Source: Candidatus Omnitrophota bacterium | GTDB lineage: Bacteria > Omnitrophota > Gorgyraeia > Gygaellales > UBA12090 | DNA: 64,000 bases | Assembly: GCA_030674475.1 (NCBI GenBank) | Contig: JAUSCZ010000035.1 | Span: 74,682-138,681, forward strand | Direction of reading: 5' to 3' | Shown: positions 3,133 to 63,303 of the stretch, piece after piece | Numbering within the stretch: the stretch's first letter is position 1 | Layout of the letters: every line of letters starts with the position of its first letter | Made by a program: the position numbers and the translations under genes | Notes under the pieces: model-generated | Database searches by the model: none | Seen by the model: the letters and a program-made list of their open reading frames with translations, nothing else | What the model was told of the DNA's origin: nothing

Positions 3133-3200
3133 AAAATAGGGACACATCCCATTTTTACGTCTCCATCTTTCAAGAAAAAATGGGATGTGTCCCTATTTTT
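3133..3200. terminator. 20-bp perfect inverted repeat hairpin (AAAAATAGGGACACATCCCA ... TGGGATGTGTCCCTATTTTT) with T-runs on both sides
   Basis: Read from the sequence; lies between the bacterioferritin-like gene and the PNPOx-like gene. Confidence 0.7.
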
Positions 3201-3208
3201 CTACTGAA

Positions 3209-3685
3209 CTAACCTTCTAAATTCTCAAACATTTCTTCGTGGGTTATCTCTTCTCCCAGTATGTGAGTTACCAACTGATAAGTATCGTGGTCTTTACCAA
3301 AGGTTTTCTTGGCAATCTTATTATAGACCTCAATTGCCCCAGCCTCAGCCGCTTCCACTAATTTAATAATCCCATCGTAATCGGAAAGTTCCTTGACTAC
3401 TCCCGGATAAGGAGCATTGGCATTTTTCTCTAAGTTAACCGGATTATTAGTGGGAAGTCCGCCCAGCTCAATAATTCTATTAGCCACTTCCTGGGCATGC
3501 TCTAACTCATCCTTGGCAATTTTATTTAAAAACTCCGACATATCTTCATAACCCTTGCCTTCCACGGTTTGAGCCATATACCAATAGGCATAAAAAGCCA
3601 ACCACTCGTCGCAATAGGCCTTATCCAAATCCTTGATTAAATCTTTTAGATCTAAATCCGCTATTTCTTTAGCCTTTCTTCCCAT
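3209..3685 (-). CDS. bacterioferritin-like / ferritin-like di-iron carboxylate protein
   Basis: 158 aa with two E-x2-H motifs (DELEHAQ, EEITHEE) in a four-helix ferritin-like layout, similar to Bfr. Confidence 0.6.
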   Translation of the reverse strand: MGRKAKEIADLDLKDLIKDLDKAYCDEWLAFYAYWYMAQTVEGKGYEDMSEFLNKIAKDELEHAQEVANRIIELGGLPTNNPVNLEKNANAPYPGVVKELSDYDGIIKLVEAAEAGAIEVYNKIAKKTFGKDHDTYQLVTHILGEEITHEEMFENLEG

Positions 3686-3972: not shown

Positions 3973-5031
3973 CTAATGATGTTCGGGTAATTTCCCAATA
4001 GGTTCATAAACACAGTAGGGCTCTTGGCTAAGATAATCTCCGGTGGCCCAATAGCCGCGGGCGCGACAGCCTCCGCAAATCTTTTTATATTCGCATATTC
4101 CGCACTTACCGGATAGCCTGGAATCGTCCCTTAGGGCCTTAAAAAGTTCGCTTTCCAGCCAAATTTCCCGGAAAGTTTGTTTTCTTAAATCTCCTGCCGC
4201 AAGCGGCAGATACCCGCAGCCAAAAACCTCTCCCTTATAAGAGACAAAACAAACCCCTTGCCCAGCCAGGCACCCCTTAGTAACCGCGTGAAAGCCATTC
4301 TTGCTTACAGACGAATTATTTTTCTCTTTGACCGAACGTTGGCGCAGGATACGGTAATAATGGGGAGCGCAGGTAGGCTTGATATGGATGGGAAAATTCT
4401 GCTGGAAATCGTAGAGCCGATTAAAGGCTTCCTCGTATTCTAAAGGTGAAATCTCATCGCCTTCAAGGGCCAGGCCGCGGCCCACCGGCACCAGAAAAAA
4501 AACATGATAAGAGAGCGCTCCCAACTTTAAGGCCAGAGCGCCGATATTCTCTAACTCGCTTAAATTTTTCCTGGTGATGGTGGTATTTATCTGGAGTTTT
4601 ATTCCAGCGTTTTTTATATTTTCAATTCCGGCTAAGGTCCTGGCGAACGCCCCCGGCCGGCCGCAGAAATCATCGTGAGCCTGAGCGGTTGAACCGTAGA
4701 TAGATACCGCGGTCAAGACTATGCCGCTTTCCTTTAGCCGCCCGGCAGTTTCCTGGTCAATCAAGGCGGCGTTAGTTGCCAGGGTGGCCTTGAGGCCGCG
4801 CTGATGAGCATAATGAATAAGCTCGTAAATATCTTCCCGGACTAATGCCTCACCCCCGGAGAAAACCAGGATAGGCTTAGCCAAAGCGGAAAGCTGATCA
4901 ATAAACCTTTTGGCCTCTAAAGTGCTTAATTCATCAGGCGAGCGCGATTTCTGGGCCTGGGCCCGGCAGTGCGGACACTCAAGATTGCAGGCCCGGGTGG
5001 TTTCCCAAAACACTAAACGCAAGTCCATCAT
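3973..5031 (-). CDS. radical SAM protein with C-terminal SPASM-type cysteine cluster
   Basis: CNLECPHC (Cx3Cx2C) near the N-terminus, plus a C-terminal cluster GKCGICEYKKICGGCRARGY. Confidence 0.75.
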   Translation of the reverse strand: MMDLRLVFWETTRACNLECPHCRAQAQKSRSPDELSTLEAKRFIDQLSALAKPILVFSGGEALVREDIYELIHYAHQRGLKATLATNAALIDQETAGRLKESGIVLTAVSIYGSTAQAHDDFCGRPGAFARTLAGIENIKNAGIKLQINTTITRKNLSELENIGALALKLGALSYHVFFLVPVGRGLALEGDEISPLEYEEAFNRLYDFQQNFPIHIKPTCAPHYYRILRQRSVKEKNNSSVSKNGFHAVTKGCLAGQGVCFVSYKGEVFGCGYLPLAAGDLRKQTFREIWLESELFKALRDDSRLSGKCGICEYKKICGGCRARGYWATGDYLSQEPYCVYEPIGKLPEHH

Positions 5032-5039
5032 TTTTTGTT

Positions 5040-6035
5040 TTATCTCTCCGCGAATCCTTTCTTAAGGATGAAATCTCCCAGGCCAAGAAGGCACCGGCGG
5101 TATTTAGAGTCTTTAAGCGCCTTAAGCTTATCTTTGGCCAAGCTGATATAAGATGAGCTGATTTTTCTGGTATAAAGATAGGCGTCAGAATCAGCGAGTT
5201 CATTTCTTATTCTCTCTAAAGAATTAGTGTCTTTTGATTTAAGCATCTCTTTCAGGCGGCTCCTCTGGTTTTTATCAGAACTCTTTAAGAGATTTAAAAG
5301 CGGCAGGGTTACTTCACCCACGCTGATATCCTGTCCCGGGGCTTTACCTAAATTGTTTTCTCCCCCTGTCAGATCCAGATAATCATCAACTATTTGAAAG
5401 GCGATTCCGAAATTAAGGCCGTAGTGCCTGAGGGAACTTCGCAGAGAGCGGGAAGAATTAGCGGAAATCGCCCCCACTTCACAGGAAGCCGCGAATAGGC
5501 TGGCGGTCTTTTTTTTGATAATCATCAGGTAGCGGTCTTTAAGCAGAGAAAGATTATCCCTTTCCACTACCTGGCTCAGCTCTCCTTCGCACATACTCTT
5601 GGTGGCTGAGCTGATACAGCTTAAAATATCGGTGTTGCCGCAATTAGAAATCAGTTCAAAAGCCAAAGAATAAAGGTAATCCCCTAAGGTAATCGAGACA
5701 TCCATGCCCCAGCGGGAATTAACCGTGGGGTTGTTATGGCGCCGCTGGGAATGGTCAATTACATCGTCGTGGATCAAAGAGGCCATATGGATAAGCTCGA
5801 TGCTAGAGGCAATATTAATTAGCTGTTTATTGACCGGGGAATCGGCCTTTCCATTGGAGGCCTTGGCCGAAAGAATAACCAAAGCCGGGCGCATCCTCTT
5901 GCCGCCAGATTCCAACAGAAAGCGATTCACCTTTAAAATGGATGAATTCCTGGCCTCACTTAAAGAGGTTTTAATCACCTCCTCAACCTGAGTAAGCTCT
6001 TCGCGTATCGGCTGATAAATTTCTTTTAATCGCAT
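5040..6035 (-). CDS. all-trans polyprenyl diphosphate synthase (IspB/HepT-like)
   Basis: LIHDDVIDHSQRRH and FQIVDDYLDLTG motifs. Confidence 0.8.
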   Translation of the reverse strand: MRLKEIYQPIREELTQVEEVIKTSLSEARNSSILKVNRFLLESGGKRMRPALVILSAKASNGKADSPVNKQLINIASSIELIHMASLIHDDVIDHSQRRHNNPTVNSRWGMDVSITLGDYLYSLAFELISNCGNTDILSCISSATKSMCEGELSQVVERDNLSLLKDRYLMIIKKKTASLFAASCEVGAISANSSRSLRSSLRHYGLNFGIAFQIVDDYLDLTGGENNLGKAPGQDISVGEVTLPLLNLLKSSDKNQRSRLKEMLKSKDTNSLERIRNELADSDAYLYTRKISSSYISLAKDKLKALKDSKYRRCLLGLGDFILKKGFAER

Positions 6036-7715: not shown

Positions 7716-8345
7716 TTATTCCGTCTTCTTAGCAATAGTCCTGAATATCCACAAATAAACCCCTAAAAGGAAAAAGGCTCCGGGGGCGATGGTCAAAATC
7801 ACCCAGTTAGTCCAGGCCCCAGGCATCACCCTGTAACCTAAAATAGTGCCAAAGCCCAGAGGTTCGCGGATTAAAGCCATCAAAATCAGCATAAAGCTAT
7901 AACCAACACCATAGCCTAAACCATCCAAGAAAGAAAGCCAGGGCCCATTCTTGATCGCAAAGGCCTCGGCCCGGCCCATCAGGATACAGTTGGTAATAAT
8001 CAGGCCCACATAAGGGCCCATCTCTTCGCTGATAGGAGGAAAATAGGCCTTCAAAACCCTATCCACACAGATTACAAAGGTAGAGATAATTACCATATAA
8101 GCCAGCATCCGCACCCGGGAAGGTATGACATTACGAAAGAACGAAACAAAAAGACAGCTAAAGGCGGTGCATAAAGTAACCCCTATCCCCATAGCCAGGG
8201 CGTTCTCTAAGCGGTTAGTTATGGCCAGCATTGAGCAGATACCCAAAACCACGCAGAATGTGGGATGATCCTGCCACATCCCGATAGTTAAGGTCTTAAA
8301 CCACTTGGTCTGCTTTATGCTTCTTTTAAGCTGTTTCTTGGGCAT
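7716..8345 (-). CDS. rnfE: Rnf/Nqr complex subunit E (RnfE/NqrD family)
   Basis: 209-aa polytopic membrane protein paralogous to the A subunit; operon position. Confidence 0.75.
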   Translation of the reverse strand: MPKKQLKRSIKQTKWFKTLTIGMWQDHPTFCVVLGICSMLAITNRLENALAMGIGVTLCTAFSCLFVSFFRNVIPSRVRMLAYMVIISTFVICVDRVLKAYFPPISEEMGPYVGLIITNCILMGRAEAFAIKNGPWLSFLDGLGYGVGYSFMLILMALIREPLGFGTILGYRVMPGAWTNWVILTIAPGAFFLLGVYLWIFRTIAKKTE

Positions 8346-19728: not shown

Positions 19729-19804
19729 TGGTGGACCCGAGCGGGATCGAACCGCTGACCTCTACAATGCGAATGTAGCGTTCTCCCAGCTGAACTACGG
19801 GCCC
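19729..19804 (-). tRNA. tRNA-Ala (anticodon CGC), CCA encoded
   Basis: Hand-folded cloverleaf: acceptor GGGCCCG/CGGGTCC with the G3-U70 Ala identity pair, anticodon stem CTACA/TGTAG with loop TTCGCAT, and a TTCGATC T-loop. Confidence 0.85.
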
Positions 19805-26765: not shown

Positions 26766-28319
26766 TTAGCTGCCGGAAATTTCAAAAACCGTAATCTTGT
26801 ATCCACCGCTCTGGGTATTGCGGGTAGAGGTTATCTCCAGGCGGCTTAAGCCAGCCATAAAATCAGGGCTCTCTTTAAGCTTTTTTAAGAAATCAGCTAT
26901 TGCCTCTTCCTCTCGCGCCTTATCCCCCAGATAAATCGCGCCTTTAAGTAAAAGCGATTTTGCTTTATCCTTTACCCCGGCCACAAGGTCAAACTGCTCA
27001 ATCCACAAGCCGGTGCGGACTGTCTCAGGCAGGACATTAAAAGACACAGTCAAGGACACCCGGGAAGCAATTAATTCCTGGATAAATAAAAGTTTTTTCT
27101 TATATTCCACCCTTCTCTGACGCAGGCCATCCAAATCCAGAATGCCTAAGTTCGCCGGGGCCAAGGCGCTTTCAGCCTCAGATTTTATGCGCTCTAAATT
27201 CTTAGCAGTGCTGAACTGTTCGGGCAAAGGAAAACCATAGGCCGCGGCCACTACTACCGCCGCCAGCACTAAAGGCCGCTTAACCGTATCAAAGCTAAGA
27301 GTGAATGCCGGAGCGGGAGCTGATATGTCTTTAGGCGCGCTCAAGCGGTATTCTTTGCGCGATTTTAATAAATCTACAGATAAATTTACCTTTATGGTAT
27401 CTCTGAGGCCTACGGCACAGGCCTTAAACGCGTCCAAGTCAGTCAAGGTGTTTAAAGCGCTATTCTGATCTAATTCCAATAACTGCACCTCTATACTTAA
27501 GTTTTTGCTCAATTCGGAGATTAGCCCGGGATTAGCATTTTTAGCCACCAGGATAATCTTATCCACCGAAGAGCCGGAAAATTGCCGGCGGAAATAACCT
27601 AGGGAAACCCTGAGCTCGCTGGTTAAGCGTTCCTGAGAAACCACCTCCGCGCCGCTTCCTGTGGAAGGCGCGTCCTGGGCCCGGGCGAGCCGGACATCCC
27701 GGCTAAAACAGGGAAAACCCGCGTTCACTATGGAAAACTCCATATCCAAATCATCATCAATAGCCATAAACGCGATAGACTGCTTAAGGTCAAGCTGTTT
27801 AGCGGCTGAAATTATCCTGAGCAAGGCAAAACTGGCCGATTCAATAGCCTTTAACTGAATACCCATTTGCTTAAATAAGCTAAGATAATAATCAAAGTTA
27901 CTCCTGGTAGCCGCCACATAGAAGATATCCATCTTGTCTGAACCTTTATTTAAGCGATGCTGATAGTCAAAAACCAGGTCCTCGGTTTTAAAAGGGAGAT
28001 ACTTCCTGGCCTCAAAGCTTATCCCGGAGGCAATTTCGGATTTTACCAGAGAAGGAATCTGAAAACCCCGGATAAAAAGGTCCTTGCTGGTAAGGCCAAG
28101 CACTGCTTCCCGAGCGCTAAATTTATTCTCTTTAAGAAATCCCTTGATCTCCCGCGACAAGTTGGCCTGAGCGCTGTCTTCGGCTGTCGGAGTGCCGGTT
28201 AAAGCCTTATCCGCCGCAACCGCTATAGCTAAGCTGGCCTGCCGGATAATATCCTTGCCCCGCAGTTCAACCGCGACAATCTTATCTTTGCCAAAATATA
28301 TTCCTAATTTATTTCCCAT
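26766..28319 (-). CDS. pilM: type IV pilus assembly protein PilM (actin-like ATPase fold), probably fused to PilN-like C-terminal TM segment
   Basis: PilM-like N-terminus (MGNKLGIYFGKDKIVAVEL), with a C-terminal TM segment LVLAAVVVAAAYGF. Confidence 0.65.
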   Translation of the reverse strand: MGNKLGIYFGKDKIVAVELRGKDIIRQASLAIAVAADKALTGTPTAEDSAQANLSREIKGFLKENKFSAREAVLGLTSKDLFIRGFQIPSLVKSEIASGISFEARKYLPFKTEDLVFDYQHRLNKGSDKMDIFYVAATRSNFDYYLSLFKQMGIQLKAIESASFALLRIISAAKQLDLKQSIAFMAIDDDLDMEFSIVNAGFPCFSRDVRLARAQDAPSTGSGAEVVSQERLTSELRVSLGYFRRQFSGSSVDKIILVAKNANPGLISELSKNLSIEVQLLELDQNSALNTLTDLDAFKACAVGLRDTIKVNLSVDLLKSRKEYRLSAPKDISAPAPAFTLSFDTVKRPLVLAAVVVAAAYGFPLPEQFSTAKNLERIKSEAESALAPANLGILDLDGLRQRRVEYKKKLLFIQELIASRVSLTVSFNVLPETVRTGLWIEQFDLVAGVKDKAKSLLLKGAIYLGDKAREEEAIADFLKKLKESPDFMAGLSRLEITSTRNTQSGGYKITVFEISGS

Positions 28320-28352: not shown

Positions 28353-28529
28353 TTAGCTTGCTTTCTGCTGTTTACTTTTAATCCAGATATTAACCTCTTT
28401 GCGGTCAAAACGCCAAACCCCTCCCACTTTAATCCCGGCAATCTTCTTTTCATGCAGCCAGTTATAAATGGTTTGACGGCGCAATTTAAGGTAGCGCGCT
28501 AATTCATCAACATCCATTAATTCGTTCAT
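28353..28529 (-). CDS. excisionase-family helix-turn-helix DNA-binding protein (58 aa; not in ORF track)
   Basis: Hand translation gives MNELMDVDELARYLKLRRQTIYNWLHEKKIAGIKVGGVWRFDRKEVNIWIKSKQQKAS*, which matches the excisionase-family/MerR-superfamily HTH pattern. Confidence 0.65.
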   Translation of the reverse strand: MNELMDVDELARYLKLRRQTIYNWLHEKKIAGIKVGGVWRFDRKEVNIWIKSKQQKAS

Positions 28530-28641
28530 TCTTGACCCTTTCTGTTAAAGAAAATCATATCTTATAATTAATCTTCATATTCAAGATATGATTATTATAA
28601 CTGATTAATATATATCATAACAGATTTACTTTGTCAAGTAA

Positions 28642-28758
28642 AATCTGCCTCTGGCGCTTAGATTTTACTTGATTCTGAGCTCTGCGAAGAATCTTAAGGA
28701 ACAATCTGCCTCTGGCGCTTAGATTTTACTTGATTCTGAGCTCTGCGAAGAATCTTAA
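28642..28758. repeat. two tandem 61-bp direct repeats (AATCTGCCTCTGGCGCTTAGATTTTACTTGATTCTGAGCTCTGCGAAGAATCTTAA...), motif AGATTTTACTTG present 3 times
   Basis: Read from the sequence. Lies upstream of the excisionase-like gene, so these are candidate operator/iteron sites or a small RNA. Confidence 0.7.
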
Positions 28759-28913
28759 TAATTTTGTTATGAAACGCATAAAATAATACCGCGCGCGAAA
28801 ACTCAAAAAAAAACACCAGCAAGCCAAACCTGTTTTGCTGGCGGATACCATAGCTCATATATAATTAAAATTATTTCATAACTAACTGCTATAAATATAG
28901 TTATAAAGAGTTC

Positions 28914-29297
28914 CTATTTAAACAGCTCATCAATAATCGCGAAGTGCTTATCTAAGGTGAGAATTACTGCTTTATTCTCTTTGGCCAAAACTGCTAAATA
29001 ACAATCAATTAACGATATGGTTTTACCCTGTTTCCTGAGTTTGTTCGCTAAAAACCCTGCCTGTTGCCAGGTGGAATCACTCTCGTTCAAAATTTTAACT
29101 ACTGAAGCTAAATCCGAGATAAGCTCAGTTTCTTTTTCAGACCTAACCCCCTGGATCAATTCGGCCAGGACAAGCTGACAAGTGGCGGCAACATTAAGAA
29201 GGAGGGCTGATTCTATCTCTTTAGTTATGGGGTGAGAAGTTTTCTTAAGATACTCTATCCAGGCTGAGGTATCAATAAGAACTAATTTAGCGCTCAT
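28914..29297 (-). CDS. vapC: type II toxin VapC (PIN domain ribonuclease)
   Basis: LIDTSAWIEY with the conserved acidic Asp, ~127 aa, overlapping an upstream antitoxin gene. Confidence 0.8.
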   Translation of the reverse strand: MSAKLVLIDTSAWIEYLKKTSHPITKEIESALLLNVAATCQLVLAELIQGVRSEKETELISDLASVVKILNESDSTWQQAGFLANKLRKQGKTISLIDCYLAVLAKENKAVILTLDKHFAIIDELFK

Positions 29298-29532
29298 TAT
29301 GGCGGGCCTTCAAGATTGTCTTATCAAAAGAGAAATTACCCCTTAAAAGATCTATTTTTTTTAGTCTTTCTTTTCTGAGAAATTCCTCGATAGCAATTCT
29401 TACCGCCTTGCTTTTATTTTTTAGATGTGTAGCAGTGAGTAACTGAGTTAATTCCTCTTTTTCTAAATTTATGGTTGTTCTCATTCTTATTGCCTCCGGA
29501 TAAATTATACAATGATAATCATAACAAGTCAA
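29287..29532 (-). CDS. vapB: type II antitoxin VapB-like (probable start at 29484, MRTTINLEK, GGAGG SD upstream)
   Basis: Small DNA-binding antitoxin with a 4-codon overlap to the PIN gene. Confidence 0.7.
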   Translation of the reverse strand: MTCYDYHCIIYPEAIRMRTTINLEKEELTQLLTATHLKNKSKAVRIAIEEFLRKERLKKIDLLRGNFSFDKTILKARHNER

Positions 29533-29694
29533 ATATTTTTATGATTCAGATGTATTCATTTTACTGCTGTTTTCCTGAAGTTATAATCCCTATTCCTACC
29601 AAGTGAGCCCAATCTATTTTGCTGGCGGATAACGCAGCCATCAATTAATTCATAACTAACTGCTATAAATATAGTTGTAAAGAATGTCCCTGGC

Positions 29695-30090
29695 TCAACT
29701 AATGATATTTACTGACAGGTGCTTCCTGTAATTTTCAAAGTCGTTATCGGTAGTGAAAATTATGAGGTTTTCCAAATGAGCCACAGCGCAGATTAAAAAG
29801 TCTGTTGTAGAACCTTGAATCCCCCTGCTTCTGCAGATATTGCTGAATTCCGCCGCTTTCTCAAAATGCTCTTTTTTAAGAACAATATCTTCAAAAGCGG
29901 AAAGTATGTCTTTTAACTTATTGAACTGCTTGGAATCGGGGATCCCGGATAGAATTTCCTGCCTTACGGGACCTATTATAAAGACCCTGCCGTCATTGAT
30001 GAGGCCTTTTAACCTGGAGGTTAATTCTGCGTCAGGATTTCTATGCCGCAGGACAGCTGACCAAACGCAGGTATCAACCAGCACCTTCAT
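29695..30090 (-). CDS. vapC: type II toxin VapC (PIN domain), second copy
   Basis: MKVLVDTCVWSAVLRH..., ~131 aa, overlapping an upstream antitoxin. Confidence 0.8.
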   Translation of the reverse strand: MKVLVDTCVWSAVLRHRNPDAELTSRLKGLINDGRVFIIGPVRQEILSGIPDSKQFNKLKDILSAFEDIVLKKEHFEKAAEFSNICRSRGIQGSTTDFLICAVAHLENLIIFTTDNDFENYRKHLSVNIIS

Positions 30091-30317
30091 CGCCTTCTAG
30101 CTTTCTTGTAATCATAATCTTTATCAAAATCAACACTGCCGAACAAATCGGCAATCTCCTGGCGCTTCTTATGCGCGATATACTCAAGCATAGCGGCAGT
30201 TACCGCCTCTTTTTTAGTCCTATGATGCCCTATCTTCTGAGTCTGAATAATCAACTTGTCATCTAAGGCCAGATTGGTCGCCATCTTACACACCTCCTTA
30301 CACATAAAGGATAACAC
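30087..30317 (-). CDS. vapB: type II antitoxin VapB-like (probable start at 30284, MATNLALDD)
   Basis: NLALDDKLI...KKEAVTAAMLEYI VapB-type pattern, with a GGAGG SD upstream. Confidence 0.7.
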   Translation of the reverse strand: MLSFMCKEVCKMATNLALDDKLIIQTQKIGHHRTKKEAVTAAMLEYIAHKKRQEIADLFGSVDFDKDYDYKKARRR

Positions 30318-30511
30318 CTACTATCGCGCCGGTCAAGCGCGTTTTTATAGACGATTGAACGCTTAATTCTAATAGTTTCTAAAATTGAGGCCCTTACTTC
30401 TCTCCAACCTACAGACAATTATCGCGACTGACACTTTTCAGCCAATTAGTTTACCAAAAGCTTATCTTGGCACGCCAATGGGTGACCCCTTGTTCCGATC
30501 ATTACACCTTT

Positions 30512-30859
30512 TTATTTATCAGCGCTGACCGTTATGCTCTCAACGCCTGTAGTACTATTTATCGCTACTGTAATATTTGAGGTTATATTGACTATGTTGA
30601 TACGATCACCATCGGAATCAACTGTATAAGTAAAAAGGGATGTGGTGGTGTTAGTATTAGGAGCTATTGTTGTGTTAGTATTTAAAACACCGGCGCGCAA
30701 ATAGACATCACCGCGCTGCATTGCCTCCAACTCCGCGTTTTGAATGGCCTTGGAGACAAAATCCTTATACGTAAGTTTATACGCATTGGGGGCAAAACCG
30801 ATAAACACCGCGCTCAAGGCAAAGCAAAACATCAGGATTATGGAAACTATAAAAATCAT
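30512..30859 (-). CDS. hypothetical small membrane protein at distal end of minor-pilin operon
   Basis: N-terminal TM helix (IFIVSIILMFCFALSAVFIGF); no recognizable domain. Confidence 0.35.
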   Translation of the reverse strand: MIFIVSIILMFCFALSAVFIGFAPNAYKLTYKDFVSKAIQNAELEAMQRGDVYLRAGVLNTNTTIAPNTNTTTSLFTYTVDSDGDRINIVNITSNITVAINSTTGVESITVSADK

Positions 30860-31428
30860 TCTTTTACATTAGTAAACCAAAGGCGCATACTTTCCTTTTT
30901 AGACACCTGGGTATCCGAACGCCCGGTTGTGATATTGGCAGTAATAGCCACAGTGAGTACATTAGGCTCATTCATAGGCACATAACTAAAGGTTATTCCG
31001 GGCTTATATTTACCATCAACCAGGGTTTCAGTAATCACGCCGGTAGTATTCGTAGCATTAAGCATAAGATTACCGCCCGCGTCAAGATAATAACAATAAT
31101 CCAGATTATTACTATAATTGTTAGGGGTGATATTATAGATGTCTCCCTCGCCTTCAAAGCAAAAATCAGTCCGGTTTAAGCTATCAGGAAGATCATCTTC
31201 ATTTAGAGTGTAACCATCCTTTACCCTCACCGCGCTTAAGGTATGCAGGCGGATATTCTCCATGGCATAGGCAATCTGCAGGCCGGCATTGCCGCGTTCC
31301 ATATTGCTCTTGATTTGAACAAAAAGAAAATTATATCCGGCCATTGCCGCGGCCATTGCCACACTACAAAGCACAATCGCTATAATCAATTCCACTAAGG
31401 TCAGGCCGCTTTCTGTTTTTATCCGCAT
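30856..31428 (-). CDS. minor pseudopilin (prepilin-type N-terminal domain)
   Basis: GLTLVELIIAIVLCSVAMAAA. Confidence 0.7.
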   Translation of the reverse strand: MRIKTESGLTLVELIIAIVLCSVAMAAAMAGYNFLFVQIKSNMERGNAGLQIAYAMENIRLHTLSAVRVKDGYTLNEDDLPDSLNRTDFCFEGEGDIYNITPNNYSNNLDYCYYLDAGGNLMLNATNTTGVITETLVDGKYKPGITFSYVPMNEPNVLTVAITANITTGRSDTQVSKKESMRLWFTNVKE

Positions 31429-31442
31429 CGAGAAACTTAAGG

Positions 31443-32258
31443 TTAATCGCTCTCAGTTGCTATTATGCTTAAGGCGGCCTCTCTAAGACTTATAGTTCCC
31501 GCTTCAGTATCTTTCAGCCACCGGATATCTATAGGATGAGGCCCGCTAGATACATCATCTATTTTAACCATATGACTGAATGTCGGCTGAGTAATTATGG
31601 GGGTGCGCGCGGTTAAGTTACCTACCTGCGCCCCATCAAGAAAACAAGTTGAATATATAGTATCGAGAGAAGTTAAGTTAACAAGGGGGCCATCATTAAC
31701 ATTGACCGCAATAGTATACATCACTAAAATATCCTTTTGCACCTCATAATTAATATCAATACTTAATTTATCCGTATTCCCTACAACAGCGTAATCATCA
31801 GGATCCATAGGATCGCTACTAGGAACAAAGGCAGTAGTATCTGTGGTTAGTTTATACTTGCTATGCACCTTAGGATAGGGAACAATATTGGTTAAACGGA
31901 TATGTTTGGTGTCTAAGCCGCCACTGCCGTCTTCCTCCGGGTAAGAAACCACCACCGTAATATTCTTATAGGGTATAGTTTTGGTGTTGGTAGCGTTCTG
32001 AGTAACCACCCTGGCGGTCCAGTTATAAGAGCCTTCCTGAGTAATCGGCACCACGGTATCATTTAATACACCATAAGCCCGGGCTGAATATTCTTCTATT
32101 TTGCTGGAAGCTAAACTCATAGCCTGGCTGCGGTATTCCGCCTGCCTCAAAAAACGTTTTCCGGCCACCACCGTAACCCCCAAGGCCCCCAACCCCACCA
32201 TTATCAGCAAAGCGCTGATCATTACCTCCAGAAGAGTAAACCCTTTCTGTCTAAACAT
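31443..32258 (-). CDS. minor pseudopilin (prepilin-type N-terminal domain)
   Basis: KGFTLLEVMISALLIMVGLGAL. Confidence 0.7.
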   Translation of the reverse strand: MFRQKGFTLLEVMISALLIMVGLGALGVTVVAGKRFLRQAEYRSQAMSLASSKIEEYSARAYGVLNDTVVPITQEGSYNWTARVVTQNATNTKTIPYKNITVVVSYPEEDGSGGLDTKHIRLTNIVPYPKVHSKYKLTTDTTAFVPSSDPMDPDDYAVVGNTDKLSIDINYEVQKDILVMYTIAVNVNDGPLVNLTSLDTIYSTCFLDGAQVGNLTARTPIITQPTFSHMVKIDDVSSGPHPIDIRWLKDTEAGTISLREAALSIIATESD

Positions 32259-33317: not shown

Positions 33318-35054
33318 TTATTCCTTTATCTTTACAACATTTAAAGACAGGTATTCTACATTTACTTCAAAATCATCATAAAGCACACCGCAATATTCCA
33401 CTTTTGGAAGGAAATAATAAAGCCTTGCCTCGTAAGTCTTGCCCGGAGCTAAAACAATAGAGGGAACATAGGTCGTGCCAAGTATTGAGAATGTCGCGGA
33501 CAGACTCCTCACATTCATCATGCTTTTATGTACCGGCACACCTGATCCTTTCTCTGTAATTCCAACCAGGGTATAAAAATTTATTCCTTCATCAGTAATG
33601 TCGTGGTTAATTAATACCTGCCAGATAATATTCAAAGCTTCACCGGTCTTAGCTACAAATTCATAGGTAACCCCTTCATGTGTAGTGTCGGGGTAGGTAC
33701 CTTTAATTTCTCTAAACAGCCCTGGGTTATCAACCAAACACGAAGTAACATCACTGGCATATCCGGCACATTGGCCAGCAGTGTATGCAAGGCTATCACA
33801 ACCCGGACAGGCAGTCCTCTCCTCGCACTTACTTTCAGTACAATTTTTATCGAAACCTGGGTCTCTTGTTGTTTCCCCATCTTCAAGCATTACACCAGAG
33901 CACACATTCTCTTCGCAGCAGGACTTACTGTCCTCGCATCTCTCATAATTATTGGCATAAGCGCTACAAGCACTAATGCAAGTCTTAAACGCATCTTTGA
34001 GCTTGTAAGTATAGGATGCCACTTTCACCTTGGCGATGCATTCTACATATCCGTTACAAGTACAAGTATCGCAGGTAGTAACATAAGTTGTACTGCAAGA
34101 AGGAGGCGGCGGAGTCCAGGGAGGAGGCGGCGGAGTCCAAGAAGTACAAGTAGTTACAGGAACACTAACACAGTTACAACTATACGTGCAAGAGTCAGAC
34201 ACATTATCTACTATATTACTGCAAGAAGTAGCACTACTACTATTGCAATCCCCAGCCGGATCCCGAGAAGGACAACTATTGTCTAAGGTACAAGAAGAAC
34301 ATCCGACTGGTGTGCGAGATGTTCCGTCATTTTCCCAGACATAGGTTACATCATAATAAGAAGTCAAACCATCGCATCTGGGCGGGCCCGAATTCTCGGA
34401 ACAGGCCTGAAAAATAGGGCTGAGGCTTGGCCCGCAGGTTGCCGGACAACTCCAGATCCTATACCCATCAATATCGGTTCCTGTTACGGTACAGTCATCA
34501 GAGCAGTTTGGCGTCAGCTCATCGCTATCCGCGTCCGGACAACCTCGTCTCTGCAGGCCATAAGGAGAACCTGATGAAACTGAGCCAGAACTACAGGTAA
34601 GATTTTCACAATAAGTAGAATCGTCGCTTGATCTCGAACCGCCAGTACCTGTTGTGCCTACACCACATTCAGTTTGCGCGCAATCATCAACCTGAAAAGG
34701 AGGCTCAGTGCAATTATAATTAGCCAACGTATCATGATCACCTGAACTGCACTTAATTGCTTTGGGAAAAGAAGCAGTGGTCAAACAGCAATCCGGACAT
34801 TCCTTCTTAAGCTCAACACATTTATTACATTCTGAAACACTGCTAAGTGCGGTCGAACAATCTCCTCCGGTTAACAGATCTTTTCCGTCTAACTGGCTAA
34901 GAATTATTGGGTCAGTCCCGTAATCCTTGCTCTCTGTATCAGAAGTATAATTAGACGGCAGGTATTTTATGCGCTTATCCTTAGGATAGGCTGGGCTATT
35001 AAAGAAAGCCAGAAATAACAAGAGTAGAATTAAGGCCTTTTTATTTTTTACCAT
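33318..35054 (-). CDS. large secreted cysteine/threonine/serine-rich protein with PPPPWTPPPP motif; candidate pilus-tip adhesin
   Basis: Signal peptide, then a ~400-aa segment carrying dozens of Cys (CSSC, CTCNGYVEC, CCEENVC). The operon context with pseudopilins supports a pilus-associated role. Confidence 0.5.
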   Translation of the reverse strand: MVKNKKALILLLLFLAFFNSPAYPKDKRIKYLPSNYTSDTESKDYGTDPIILSQLDGKDLLTGGDCSTALSSVSECNKCVELKKECPDCCLTTASFPKAIKCSSGDHDTLANYNCTEPPFQVDDCAQTECGVGTTGTGGSRSSDDSTYCENLTCSSGSVSSGSPYGLQRRGCPDADSDELTPNCSDDCTVTGTDIDGYRIWSCPATCGPSLSPIFQACSENSGPPRCDGLTSYYDVTYVWENDGTSRTPVGCSSCTLDNSCPSRDPAGDCNSSSATSCSNIVDNVSDSCTYSCNCVSVPVTTCTSWTPPPPPWTPPPPSCSTTYVTTCDTCTCNGYVECIAKVKVASYTYKLKDAFKTCISACSAYANNYERCEDSKSCCEENVCSGVMLEDGETTRDPGFDKNCTESKCEERTACPGCDSLAYTAGQCAGYASDVTSCLVDNPGLFREIKGTYPDTTHEGVTYEFVAKTGEALNIIWQVLINHDITDEGINFYTLVGITEKGSGVPVHKSMMNVRSLSATFSILGTTYVPSIVLAPGKTYEARLYYFLPKVEYCGVLYDDFEVNVEYLSLNVVKIKE

Positions 35055-35473
35055 TGGTCACATCCAGTTCTATTAATAAGGCCGCCTTGGTTAGTAATAG
35101 TCATATTCCTACCACTACAGGCCAAACCGGAAACCGCGCGGGTAGCCGTGGCAGTAAAGCTTGGGCTGGTGGTGGCGTTAATAGAATAAGTAAAACTGTC
35201 TCCTTCTAAATCAATCCCTAAATTCTCAGTATCATTAGTATACTCTCCCTCGTTCAAATAATACCTCTGCTGGGCAGAGTAGATTAATTGCAGGTTAGCC
35301 TCGGCTTCTTTGGCCTTATTTTTCTCTGAAGATCGGCTAAAATTACCCATATTCAGGCTAACCAAAATCCCGATAATTACCAAAACCACCAGCAACTCAA
35401 TCATAGTAAACCCCGTTAGAAGCCTCTTGCCTCTTACAGGTTGCTCATTAACTTCTAACGGGGCAGGCCCCAT
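35048..35473 (-). CDS. type IV pilin with 21-aa leader (ORF track starts at TTG 35485; ATG at 35473 has an AGGAGA SD upstream)
   Basis: ...GKRLLTG|FTMIELLVVLVIIGILVS prepilin cleavage/methylation site. Confidence 0.7.
   Translation of the reverse strand: MGPAPLEVNEQPVRGKRLLTGFTMIELLVVLVIIGILVSLNMGNFSRSSEKNKAKEAEANLQLIYSAQQRYYLNEGEYTNDTENLGIDLEGDSFTYSINATTSPSFTATATRAVSGLACSGRNMTITNQGGLINRTGCDQW
35410..35470. repeat. family B palindromic element copy 2, encoding the pilin leader peptide
   Basis: About 85% identical to 16961-17019. The CCCCGTTAGAAG / CTTCTAACGGGG arms are an inverted repeat. Confidence 0.75.
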
Positions 35474-36091
35474 TTTCACTTGCAAATCTCCTTATAAGTG
35501 CGATAAATCGCACCGCTACGCAACATGAGATAAATCGCCTACCTGCGGTAAGCAGGCACCGCTACGCGACATGAGTGACCCACGGTAGGCGGAGGTAAAA
35601 CCCGCGCCCTTATCACTCCCAAGGAGCAACTGCATCTCAGAGTATCGGTATAACCAACTCAAGAACAGACTTTTAAAAACTCCTGCTATAATAAAAAACC
35701 AAGCTCTACTTTTTAAGGGTAGCTTGGCTTCGCACTCTAAGAATAAAACCGAGTGCTCTTTTCTTGTTTGAGCTTAACAACTTGGCTTTATTCTGGTTTT
35801 AAAGTTAAGTTGTCGGTGCGCCAGGCTACCTTATCCAGAGGGCTTTCCCCTCCTTTACTTCTGGTAAGACTTAGGTCCTTTAGCTTTGCGCCCCGCGGTT
35901 TCCCGCGGTTTGCCCCGGCCTTAATTTCCTGTGCCGGCCTACCGGTTTCCTGTTTGCGCGGTAGATTTTCGGATGTGGTAATTAAAGTATACACCATAAA
36001 AGAACTAATTACAAGGGTAAAACCGCCTTTTCAGGAAAGCGCTTTCTTGGGAGGAATTTTATCGGTTGAACTCTTTGGTTATCGCTTAGCT

Positions 36092-36949
36092 TTACCTTTC
36101 CCGCAGGAAATTCTCCTTTATGAAATCAATCAGGTATTCGTAAAGCGGCTGGGAGGTTTTTATAAATCCCTCTATCTGCTGCCAGCGGATATCCAGATAT
36201 TCATGGGTAATCATATTCCTTAACCCCGCGAACCTGCCCAGCTTCTCGGCAGTGTTTTTATCAAAATCTTTCAGCAAAGACAGCGATTTCAGGATCTCTT
36301 TATATTTCTCCGGCAGGCGGATTTTCTCTGAGGCCAGAACAATCTCGGCGATGTCAATCGAACAAAGCGCGATGCCTTCCGCCCAATGCTCAACATTTCT
36401 TTTTTTGCCGCGATCAGACTCATAAAGGGATTGATTAAGCTCCCGGAATTCCTCGTAAGATTTTAATTCTTCTTCCAGGAAATCAATCAAAACCTCCAAC
36501 TGTTCTTTATCTTCCAGGCTTAATGATTTTGACCTTTCCCGAATCCGCCTATAGTCTTGAATAAATTCTTTAAAATCCGCGGACGCGGAATTAATGGTTA
36601 GGAAGAATCGCCAATACAGGGAACGGTCTTTTATAAATATGGGCAGGCCGGTCTTTAGAACCTTGGAAGCCATCGTGCTTGCTGCCCGGTTTAAAACCAG
36701 AAGGTCAACTTCTCTATCCAGAAGATTTTCCAGTTCCCGCCATATCCGGTCTTCTTCGGGATAAAAGGTGTCTTCTTCCCATTCAAGAGCCCTGCCCGCC
36801 GGATTAAAATAAACCGCGATATCCATATCAGAATCCGGCAGGTGCTGGCCTTTGGCAAAAGAGCCGAAAATAAAGGCCATAGAGATATTTTTTTGGTTTT
36901 TGAAATACTCTTTTAACTCTTGGATCTTGACCTTTACCGGCGTTATCAT
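36092..36949 (-). CDS. nucleotidyltransferase (MNT, Pol-beta superfamily) fused to HEPN (DUF86-like) domain
   Basis: N-terminal GSFAKG...DSDMDIAV nucleotidyltransferase motif, with a C-terminal RNMITHEY (Rx4H HEPN motif). Confidence 0.65.
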   Translation of the reverse strand: MITPVKVKIQELKEYFKNQKNISMAFIFGSFAKGQHLPDSDMDIAVYFNPAGRALEWEEDTFYPEEDRIWRELENLLDREVDLLVLNRAASTMASKVLKTGLPIFIKDRSLYWRFFLTINSASADFKEFIQDYRRIRERSKSLSLEDKEQLEVLIDFLEEELKSYEEFRELNQSLYESDRGKKRNVEHWAEGIALCSIDIAEIVLASEKIRLPEKYKEILKSLSLLKDFDKNTAEKLGRFAGLRNMITHEYLDIRWQQIEGFIKTSQPLYEYLIDFIKENFLRER

Positions 36950-62616: not shown

Positions 62617-63303
62617 TTACCTATTAACTATTTCTCTTCGCGGCCTACCATTCCGAGGCATAAATACTCCTCGCTCTAATACTAATCTTCTTAAGAATTC
62701 ACCTGAACCCAGCGGTTTTTCAAAATCATCAAATAATTCCTCTTCTTTTTCATCAAATTCCAGTAGAAAACTCTGATATTTCAATCTTCTTCCTTCAGCC
62801 GTTAGTCCAAAAGTGGCAAATAAAGGATTCTCCTCTGTAAGACTGTCCACTTTACCATAAATATAATATGCCGCGCTGCTAAACGGATATTCAGCCGCTG
62901 ACTGAACAAGCCCGGCATTAATCGGATTTCTCTCAATATATCTTCCGCAGGTTAATAGATATTCTTCCTTCTCGACAGCCTGGCATTTAAATCTACCCTG
63001 AAAAAGATGCCCAACGGAGTTATATTTTTTATGATAATAGTAAACATAAGAACGCGCGATACCGGCCATAATGGACGATATTTCTTTAGGATTATCCAAC
63101 GCCAGCAGGAGATGGTAGTGATTAGACATAATGACCCAGTGATGAATCCTTAAGTTACGCTGGCGGGTATATTTAGTTAATATCTCAATAAAACGGTTAT
63201 AATCTTCGTTATCATGGAAAATATTATTCTTGGCGTTTCCTCTATTAAAGATATGATAGATCAGCGACCCAGTTATACTATAAGAACGGGCTGTATAAGG
63301 CAT
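62617..63303 (-). CDS. IS200/IS605-family Y1 (HUH) transposase, REP-associated tyrosine transposase (RAYT)-like
   Basis: HUH motif (SNHYHLLL), a downstream catalytic Tyr region (YVYYYHKKY), and a ~228 aa size. Confidence 0.7.
   Translation of the reverse strand: MPYTARSYSITGSLIYHIFNRGNAKNNIFHDNEDYNRFIEILTKYTRQRNLRIHHWVIMSNHYHLLLALDNPKEISSIMAGIARSYVYYYHKKYNSVGHLFQGRFKCQAVEKEEYLLTCGRYIERNPINAGLVQSAAEYPFSSAAYYIYGKVDSLTEENPLFATFGLTAEGRRLKYQSFLLEFDEKEEELFDDFEKPLGSGEFLRRLVLERGVFMPRNGRPRREIVNR

Follow-up and report, generated by a model that had tools for sequence, protein, structure and literature searches.

The window analysed here is a stretch of 64,000 nucleotides (nt) from a metagenome-assembled genome (MAG) of Candidatus Omnitrophota (locus tag Q7J72_08355), on a contig that is 190,996 bp long, and this report concerns the interval 28353-30317, located inside a type IV pilus (T4P) gene cluster. 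The interval contains a small gene with a helix-turn-helix (HTH) domain, a 61-bp tandem repeat next to its promoter, and two vapBC toxin-antitoxin (TA) modules, each followed by a copy of the same flank. An earlier note had described these features from the letters alone, and all of them are present at or near the places where it put them. The interval is probably a variable junction between two operons of the T4P cluster that holds three unrelated things, and not one element. Overall, the TA islet is real but ordinary, and the pairing of the HTH gene with pilM, with phased repeats at their promoter, is a modest new lead.

The HTH gene and the pilM operon

Scanning with the 58-aa HTH protein recovered 80 metagenome-contig loci. 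In 76 of them a pilM homolog begins downstream of the HTH gene, at a median distance of 35 nt; in the remaining four the downstream sequence is too short to judge whether pilM is present. The HTH gene is also found in L004 (the Omnitrophica GWA2_41_15 MAG) and L003, both of which have no vapBC genes, and in 70+ loci without the vapBC islet. Because it adjoins pilM at these 76 loci and is present in islet-free relatives, it is the conserved leader of the pilM-pilO-secretin-pilB-pilC operon and not a gene of the islet. At related loci the HTH protein shares a median of 69% of its amino acids (aa) with that of the window, against 29% for PilM, and 23 of the 58 HTH residues are invariant over 26 homologs, including the QTIYNWL stretch of the recognition helix.

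The protein has the winged-helix, HTH_17-type fold expected of an excisionase, the role proposed for it in the earlier note, but the comparison does not bear that role out. The gene is not part of a mobile element with an integrase or att sites nearby: a scan of the 54 larger open reading frames (ORFs) of the window turned up no integrase or serine recombinase, and the adjoining gene is pilM. Neither is its distribution restricted to strains that carry the islet. The label 'excisionase family' describes the fold, whereas by its synteny the gene is firmly tied to the operon for pilus assembly. A single-sequence AlphaFold model of the protein (pLDDT 84) is a winged helix, and its best matches in the Protein Data Bank (PDB) are the RacA DNA-binding domain, BldC, Pukovnik Xis, Tn916 Xis and the pSK1 Par DNA-binding domain. 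Searches combining Omnitrophota with pili, HTH or pilM found no literature on an HTH-pilM pairing in this phylum.

Promoter and operator-like motif

The putative promoter of the HTH-pilM operon (Table 1) keeps the form TTGACA-N14-TG-N-T(T/C)TAAT in 73 distinct relatives. These 73 upstream regions were aligned by anchoring at the -35 hexamer (TTGACA-N14-YR), giving the consensus taAGTAAGT.TaAGTAA.TATATATAAAAAAACAC-TTGACA-AAATAAAT.TTTTA-TG-T-TTTAAT. In L006, L010 and L058 blastn finds the promoter at 96-97% identity over 30 nt, even though the PilM proteins are only 33-40% identical.

Three exact copies of the motif AGATTTTACTTG, which the earlier note had described as thrice repeated, do occur in the interval (at 28660 and 28721 on the plus strand and at 28635-28646 on the minus strand), but one of them is inverted rather than direct and pairs with the first as a perfect 13-bp inverted repeat (28634-28646 / 28660-28672). 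A fourth, degenerate copy lies inside the promoter spacer at 28622-28631 (minus strand). The idea that the motif looks like an operator gained support from the relatives: AGATTTTACTTG is the reverse complement of CAAGTAAAATCT, that is, of the element AAGTAA(A/G)T conserved at the HTH promoter in the 73 distinct relatives, and the proximal copy in the window is in register with motif 1 of the consensus. At least two RAGTAA motifs are found within 45 nt 5' of the -35 hexamer in 50 of the 73 regions (background 0.028 per 45 nt), with a spacing of exactly 10 nt in 49 of these 50. Counting both strands of 696 kb of fetched DNA, 61 of 66 such pairs lie within 260 nt 5' of an HTH gene and on the same strand.

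BldC oligomerises head to tail on DNA direct repeats (PMC5859096). The phased direct repeats at the gene's own promoter, together with the BldC/Xis-type fold, suggest a head-to-tail mechanism here as well, and by this analogy we infer that the HTH protein may bind the phased repeats head to tail and autoregulate the operon.

The 61-bp tandem repeat

The tandem repeat consists of two perfect 56-nt copies and a 5-nt linker, and each 61-bp unit holds one AAGTAAAATCT. Homology between the window and L004 restarts exactly at the TTGACA hexamer. Among closely related strains the copy number varies at the same locus: the unit is absent from L004, L089 and L086, present once in L005 and L085 (as a variant unit with a different inner hairpin), twice in the window, and three times in L093, where one unit is broken by a small hairpin insert. 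The two perfect copies described in the earlier note are thus real, but they are not conserved. The repeat is a recent strain-specific slippage duplication, or variable-number tandem repeat (VNTR), rather than a conserved array of iterons. Given the varying copy number among sister strains, the copies are perfectly identical because the duplication is recent, and the internal repeat junction AGATTGTTCCTTAAGA is similar to the promoter junction AGATTTTACTTGACA, in line with slippage. Slippage would have duplicated motif-bearing DNA at the -35 hexamer, each unit adding one copy of the motif. Short matches also exist between the 61-bp unit and the 3' end of the glycosyltransferase gene of L004 (AGAGCTCAGA; CTAAGCG...CAGAGGC), too short to support a conclusion.

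In L093 (5755-6020 of an NCBI MAG contig) the three units reach up to TTGACA, but beyond it, where HTH-pilM would be expected, there is unrelated DNA with a gene for a secreted protein. This arrangement is either a real rearrangement with its breakpoint in the -35 hexamer or a chimeric assembly. No Rfam family was found for the structured-looking leader of L093.

The two vapBC modules

The presence of two vapB-vapC pairs was confirmed by Pfam. Both VapC proteins match PF01850 over the full length, and the conserved acidic positions DT, E, D and D can be seen by eye in both translations. VapB2 matches PF09957 at 3.7e-15, while VapB1 (1e-4, 22.5 bits) falls just below the 23.4-bit cutoff. The true vapB starts are the ATG codons at 29484 and 30284, each preceded by GGAGG, and the resulting 65-aa products agree with the gene calls of relatives. 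As VapC1 and VapC2 share only 25% identity and VapB1 cannot be aligned with VapB2, the two modules are independent acquisitions; together with the finding of vapBC2 elsewhere without the flank (below), this speaks against the duplication of a module plus its flank, which the earlier note had considered.

The modules are accessory, being absent from L004 and L003. Regarding the other strains, vapBC1 alone is found in L094 (L089 keeps a remnant of it), vapBC2 alone in L093, and both in the window, L005, L085, L086 and L088; in L005, L085 and L088 vapC1 is a pseudogene, with a frameshift and an insert of ~155 bp resembling a miniature inverted-repeat transposable element (MITE). Nucleotide identity between the window and L005/L086 is 97-99% in the modules, 93% in pilM and 78-79% in the pseudopilin genes, and vapBC1 is 90-93% identical to that of L094, whose pil genes are 75-80% identical. 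That the modules are more alike than the neighbouring pil genes indicates that lineages have exchanged modules.

With 4336 proteins at E<=1e-20, the family of vapBC2 is very large, and the four listed matches with a named source span four prokaryotic phyla. In L097 and L098 the nearest copies outside the junction (86-92% aa identity) follow the valyl-tRNA synthetase (ValRS) gene and nadC, and in L099 the copy occupies a different site. Homology with these three loci (88-91% of nt, ~650 bp) extends exactly from the vapB2 -35 hexamer to the vapC2 stop codon, and the flank does not travel with the module. At the ValRS-nadC locus of L097, and also of L098, vapBC2 is bracketed by a diverged duplicate of the first ~15 codons of the downstream gene; in L097, TTAAGAAATCAGGAATTAT at 2405-2423 corresponds to 3195-3213, and MIKKSGIILSLVVAL to MFKKTGIILLLVLAA. 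Duplication of the start of the downstream gene at two loci, that of the window and that of L097, hints at a general insertion signature. No relevant literature was found on vapBC modules flanked by direct repeats.

The repeated flank and a TMEM260-like gene

The shared flank after each vapBC module (S1 after vapBC1, S2 after vapBC2) was confirmed. The two copies are 95% identical over 41 nt (28869-28909 versus 29643-29683; the A core) and 82% identical over 33 nt (28822-28854 versus 29606-29638; the B half), and a 28-mer of the flank occurs exactly twice in the 64 kb, with 0 expected by chance. In species-representative genomes the flank core matches only L004 and L003. S1 matches L004 3365-3487 at 87-88%, a stretch that comprises the start of a 667-aa gene and the region upstream of it: in L004 and L003 the flank directly follows the pseudopilin stop codon and enters this gene, whose product starts with MGYSIRQQNRFGLLVFF... 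and is a TMEM260-like protein (PF11028, 9.5e-41) with TPR. In the window ~1.95 kb of the gene body is absent and the start codon with ~19 codons is retained. L094 has, in order, the 115-aa pseudopilin gene (pp115), vapB1C1, a single S copy, an intact TMEM260-like gene of 683 aa, the HTH gene and pilM. From these alignments, the repeated flank of ~85-90 bp can be identified as the upstream region and first ~15-19 codons of the TMEM260-like gene. The earlier note would have given up its reading if the flank were part of the VapC coding or terminator region at every vapBC; instead, it belongs to a third gene.

Three forms of the flank were distinguished. The S1-type has the A core and the true gene start (B1) and lies beside the gene or its stub; the S2-type has the A core and a diverged half (B2) and lies between vapC2 and vapB1; and S3-delta, which lacks the A core and consists of a boundary piece and B2, is found between the pseudopilin gene and vapB2 in L085, L086 and L093. 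The only full S copy of L093 is a hybrid, S2-type on the left and S1-type on the right. In sister strains the S2 core is TATAACAGTCAG and the S1 core TATAGCAGTTAG, whereas in the window both are TATAGCAGTTAG. The identical cores of the window suggest gene conversion, which would account for the 28-nt perfect match between the flanks. By eye, the A core contains an extended -10-like box (TG-N-AATAAT, or GATAAT in L004) ~12 nt before the start codon, plausibly the promoter of the lost TMEM260-like gene. The suggestion of a shared attachment or regulatory site stands in part: the flank is shared at recombination joints and is probably regulatory, while its form as an att site is kept as an alternative and weighed below.

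A hairpin, CCAGCAA-N12-TTGCTGG followed by a run of T8-9, occurs within codons 5-19 of the TMEM260-like gene, at 28806-28843 (minus strand) in the window, and is kept where the gene is intact, at L004 3372-3410 (minus strand) and L094 ~5745-5790. The predicted RNA folding energies are -15.8 to -16.8 kcal/mol (-15.8 for the window copy), with z-scores of only -1.5 to -2.2. Together, the hairpin and T-run resemble an intrinsic terminator, or an attenuator, placed inside the first part of the coding sequence.

Origin of the junction and alternative explanations

A probable history of the junction can be drawn from these comparisons. Two unrelated vapBC modules, each with its own promoter, would have been inserted between the last pseudopilin gene and the HTH promoter, at the place where relatives carry the TMEM260-like gene. 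S1 would be the stub left by the deletion of that gene, and S2 a diverged duplicate at the joint between the modules. We infer that related strains recombined, whether by a homologous, illegitimate or site-specific process, and so added or removed modules at joints now marked by the S copies. Along one route, homologous or illegitimate recombination may have stacked a vapBC2-S segment before vapBC1-S, and recombination or gene conversion between S copies could then have produced the vapBC2-only form seen in L093.

Other explanations were considered for the whole interval and for its parts. If it were the remnant of an integrative element, as the earlier note proposed, the HTH protein would be its excisionase, the 61-bp repeats the sites of that protein, and the flanks its att sites; the HTH_17 match and Xis-like fold, the flank copies that bracket the modules and the lower G+C content of the islet (0.375-0.39 versus ~0.45) fit this proposal. 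It is nevertheless very improbable, since synteny contradicts it, with HTH fixed beside pilM and present in islet-free relatives, the 61-bp unit is missing from islet-bearing sister strains such as L086, no integrase or serine recombinase was found among the ORFs scanned, and there is no DNA similarity to phage or plasmid records. Very improbable too, for the tandem repeat, are an assembly artefact, for which perfect identity of copies would be typical, or the iterons of a replication origin, which the repeated motifs resemble. L093, from another sample, has three units, two of which share one substitution, and in an independent Logan assembly of SRR13727527 the sequence is broken within the repeat into two contigs; because this assembly branches there and L093 carries three units, the repeat is not an artefact. 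As for iterons, no replication gene or origin lies beside the repeat, its neighbours being pilus genes, the cumulative GC skew is steady through the region with no turning point, and the number of copies ranges from 0 to 3 among strains.

The flank itself could be a site-specific att or cassette site lying over the 5' end of the TMEM260-like gene, where vapBC cassettes were integrated successively by a recombinase acting in trans. This predicts the hybrid sites observed, with an element-type B2 on the left and a gene-type B1 on the right: the B2-type half precedes both vapB2 (as S3-delta in L085, L086 and L093) and vapB1 (as S2), the B1-type is found only at the gene or its stub, and the S copy of L093 is an S2/S1 hybrid. 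The 28-41-nt A core is also the most conserved segment, and the modules were gained and lost independently. We regard this explanation as unlikely, since L094 has vapBC1 with one S copy and no left-hand site, the vapBC2 unit exists at other loci entirely without S, no recombinase was found nearby, the flank has no attC-like fold, and the hybrids are equally explained by homologous recombination within the A core plus gene conversion (the S1 and S2 cores of the window being identical). An integron-like array without integrase (a cluster of attC sites lacking integron integrases, CALIN), in which the vapBC modules are cassettes and the flank is attC, has next to no chance of being correct. TA cassettes are common in chromosomal integrons, and two unrelated TA modules each trailed by a similar sequence of ~85 bp recall such an array; however, on both strands of both flank copies there is no attC-like imperfect hairpin (the R''-L''...L'-R' single-strand fold with AAC/GTT cores), with z-scores of -0.7 to -1.2 and no end-to-end pairing, no RYYYAAC...GTTRRRY pair is seen by eye at the flank ends, the flank is the 5' end of a protein-coding gene, and there is no IntI.

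Some observations also weigh against our own interpretation of a junction with an autoregulated pilus operon on one side. The fold matches of the HTH model have TM scores of ~0.53-0.72, those to RacA, BldC, Pukovnik Xis and Tn916 Xis being 0.53-0.70, and weak E-values (0.02-0.2; Foldseek with a single-sequence model), and sequence searches of the PDB with the single HTH protein and with a 26-sequence profile gave no significant match, the best relevant profile match being Pukovnik Xis at E 0.14. The promoter architecture is not uniform: the closest relatives (L004, L006, L010, L012 and L058) have only the spacer copy AAAGTAAATCT, which the window also keeps at 28631-28622, without the two upstream copies. 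The motif could serve another factor or be an UP-like promoter element. Regarding the flank, the contrast between an A core that is 95% alike and a B half that is 82% alike, with B2 before each module and B1 only by the stub, is also what an attL/attR pair predicts.

Locus setting and other observations

The coordinates of the features are given in Table 1. Almost all genes of the T4P cluster are on the minus strand, and pilus genes identified by Pfam lie on both sides of the interval. The remainder of the window encodes housekeeping functions (Rnf, arginine and lysine biosynthesis, UvrA), and the window is a core chromosomal region.

Table 1. Features of the junction and of the surrounding T4P cluster.
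Feature	Position	Strand	Description
HTH_17 winged-helix gene	28353-28529	-	58 aa; first gene of the pilM operon; Pfam HTH_17 7.8e-15
Putative HTH-pilM operon promoter	28609-28637	-	TTGACA 28637-28632, 17-nt spacer with AAGTAAATCT, TG, TATATA 28614-28609; read from the sequence
Operator-like AAGTAA(A)ATCT motifs	28731-28721, 28670-28660, 28631-28622 (spacer)	-	Inverted copy 28636-28646 on +, overlapping the -35
61-bp tandem duplication	28642-28758	.	Abuts the -35; Tandem Repeats Finder: period 61, 1.9 copies, 100% identity
S1	28806-28912	-	Upstream region and start-codon stub of the deleted TMEM260-like glycosyltransferase gene (ATG 28858, ~19 codons, MSYGIRQQNRFGLLVFF...), with the hairpin and its T9 run at about 28843-28806
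vapB1-vapC1	vapC1 28914-29297; vapB1 29287-29484	-	11-nt overlap; PIN 6.5e-16, VapB_antitoxin 1e-4
vapB1 promoter	29504-29532	-	TTGACT-17-TATAAT, palindrome ATGATTATCAT in spacer; 11/12 consensus matches
S2	29606-29692	-	Second, diverged copy of the 5' region, lying between vapC2 and vapB1; made up of A core + B2 half, as seen when all S copies are aligned
vapB2-vapC2	vapC2 29695-30090; vapB2 30087-30284	-	4-nt overlap; PIN 7e-14, VapB_antitoxin 3.7e-15
vapB2 promoter	30308-30336	-	TTGACC-17-TATCCT, TG upstream; 9/12 consensus; left edge of the mobile ~650-bp unit
Junction inserts in sister strains	L005 1768-1920; L085 ~5206-5340; L086 ~4134-4290 and ~3430-3500; L089 ~7735-7905; L093 ~4490-4700 and ~5546-5610		Hairpin/MITE-like
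Upstream side of cluster, in transcription order		-	c-di-GMP-I riboswitch, pilin-like genes, three pseudopilin-like genes (271, 190, 115 aa), interval
Downstream side of cluster, in transcription order		-	PilM (517 aa), PilO-like, 140-aa protein, secretin, PilB ATPase, PilC, more pilins

A cyclic di-GMP (c-di-GMP-I) riboswitch is located at 35812-35924 (minus strand; 47 bits versus a gathering cutoff of 35), just 5' of a pilin-like gene at 35048-35485. The pseudopilin operon downstream of it ends at the islet, which suggests a minor-pilin operon under c-di-GMP control. Just 5' of the riboswitch, at 36092-36949 (minus strand), a single 285-aa ORF joins a Polbeta/MNT nucleotidyltransferase domain to a HepT-like RNase domain, which are usually the separate halves of a TA pair. 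The pseudopilin genes (30512-32258) have 72-83% nt identity to those of L086, L005 and L093, strains whose pilM is 92-93% identical, and two unrelated versions of the spacer that follows pp115 occur (window/L090-L092 versus L085-L088/L093); the minor-pilin genes are mosaic and hypervariable. On the other side, the pilM-like gene (26766-28319, minus strand) encodes 517 aa, of which the PilM_2 domain spans only residues 6-209. The length of ~500-517 aa is kept in relatives, and the remaining C-terminal part of ~300 aa, for which Pfam gives no match, may be a fused PilN-like portion.

Several different hairpin/MITE-like inserts with terminal inverted repeats share the junction in sister strains; one disrupts vapC1 and another interrupts a 61-bp unit. 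The sole transposase-like match in the window is an IS200-like Y1 enzyme of 228 aa at 62617-63303 (minus strand; PF01797 1.1e-14), ~33 kb from the islet, which may be associated with repetitive extragenic palindromic (REP) sequences, as a REP-associated tyrosine transposase (RAYT-type), given the many small palindromic inserts in relatives. A tRNA or tmRNA target was rejected, the only tRNA of the window being tRNA-Ala at 19729-19804, ~9 kb from the islet, and so was a dif/XerCD-like site in the 28-nt core, whose arms, by eye, are not inverted repeats and which has no CATAA/TTATG core. Rfam gave only sub-threshold chance matches in the interval (best Esr41, 22 bits versus a cutoff of 102 bits) and none in L093, L004 or L094. 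The record of L003 (CAYHTN010000044.1) is labelled 'uncultured Gammaproteobacteria' and is essentially identical to L004 over the compared region (100% for the TMEM260-like protein); it is probably mis-binned or mislabelled.

Significance

Placing the HTH gene in the core of the pilus operon avoids the false mobile-element annotation that its HTH_17 match and 'excisionase family' label invite. A small Xis/BldC-like protein whose conservation far exceeds that of the pilus assembly proteins encoded after it is a testable candidate T4P regulator, in an uncultured phylum where pili are thought to be important for attachment to hosts or partners. In addition, strains with none, one, the other or both modules offer an unusually clean view of TA turnover at a single site. 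A bolder and rather tentative proposal is that HTH_17 and the phased AAGTAA(A/G)T repeats could form a dedicated, clade-wide autoregulator of the T4P operon across Omnitrophota and their relatives, working as a BldC-like, repeat-polymerising switch that the VNTR could tune in strength, and that, separately, minimal vapBC modules might insert by duplicating the 5' end of the downstream gene, as at the window and L097. If true, such an insertion would be a clue to the movement of TA modules that have no transposase.

Comparison with known systems

The two modules resemble type II VapBC systems in having a PIN toxin preceded by an overlapping VapB gene with its own sigma-70-like promoter, a palindrome in the vapB1 promoter spacer, and a patchy, horizontally mobile distribution. 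The modules themselves are ordinary, and the only notable difference is their bracketing by duplicates of the 5' end of the downstream gene. The place they occupy recalls the tfpO/tfpW-Z pilin glycosylation genes of Pseudomonas aeruginosa, a variable accessory region downstream of the pilin genes. At the junction, too, a strain-variable slot after pilin-like genes carries a membrane glycosyltransferase in some strains only, and the adjoining pseudopilin genes are far more diverged than the assembly genes. In contrast to Pseudomonas, the glycosyltransferase is TMEM260-like (DUF2723) with TPR, and in this lineage the slot holds TA modules; a role of the TMEM260-like gene in pilin glycosylation is only a guess.

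With excisionases, or recombination directionality factors, such as Pukovnik Xis (4J2N) and Tn916 Xis (1Y6U), the HTH protein shares Pfam HTH_17 and the winged-helix fold. Excisionases also bind arrays of direct repeats. However, the HTH gene has no integrase partner and is fixed in the pilus operon with or without the insert. BldC, the MerR-like protein of Streptomyces (PDB 6AMA/6AMK), is a small protein consisting only of a winged helix, as is the HTH protein (68 aa versus 58 aa), and the HTH model matches its fold with a TM score of ~0.53-0.67 and a probability of 0.93-0.99, but a weak E-value of 0.075-0.14 (Foldseek). The direct repeats about one helical turn apart at the HTH promoter are akin to the layout of BldC targets. 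Even so, the HTH protein has no significant sequence match to BldC, the repeat is of 10 bp with AAGTAA(A/G)T instead of the 9-bp AATTNNNN(C) of BldC, and the motif pairs are essentially confined to the gene's own promoter, whereas the BldC regulon is broad. Overall, and judging from the cis side, where the likeness is seen, the layout at the HTH promoter appears most like that of the BldC-type, repeat-binding winged-HTH regulators.

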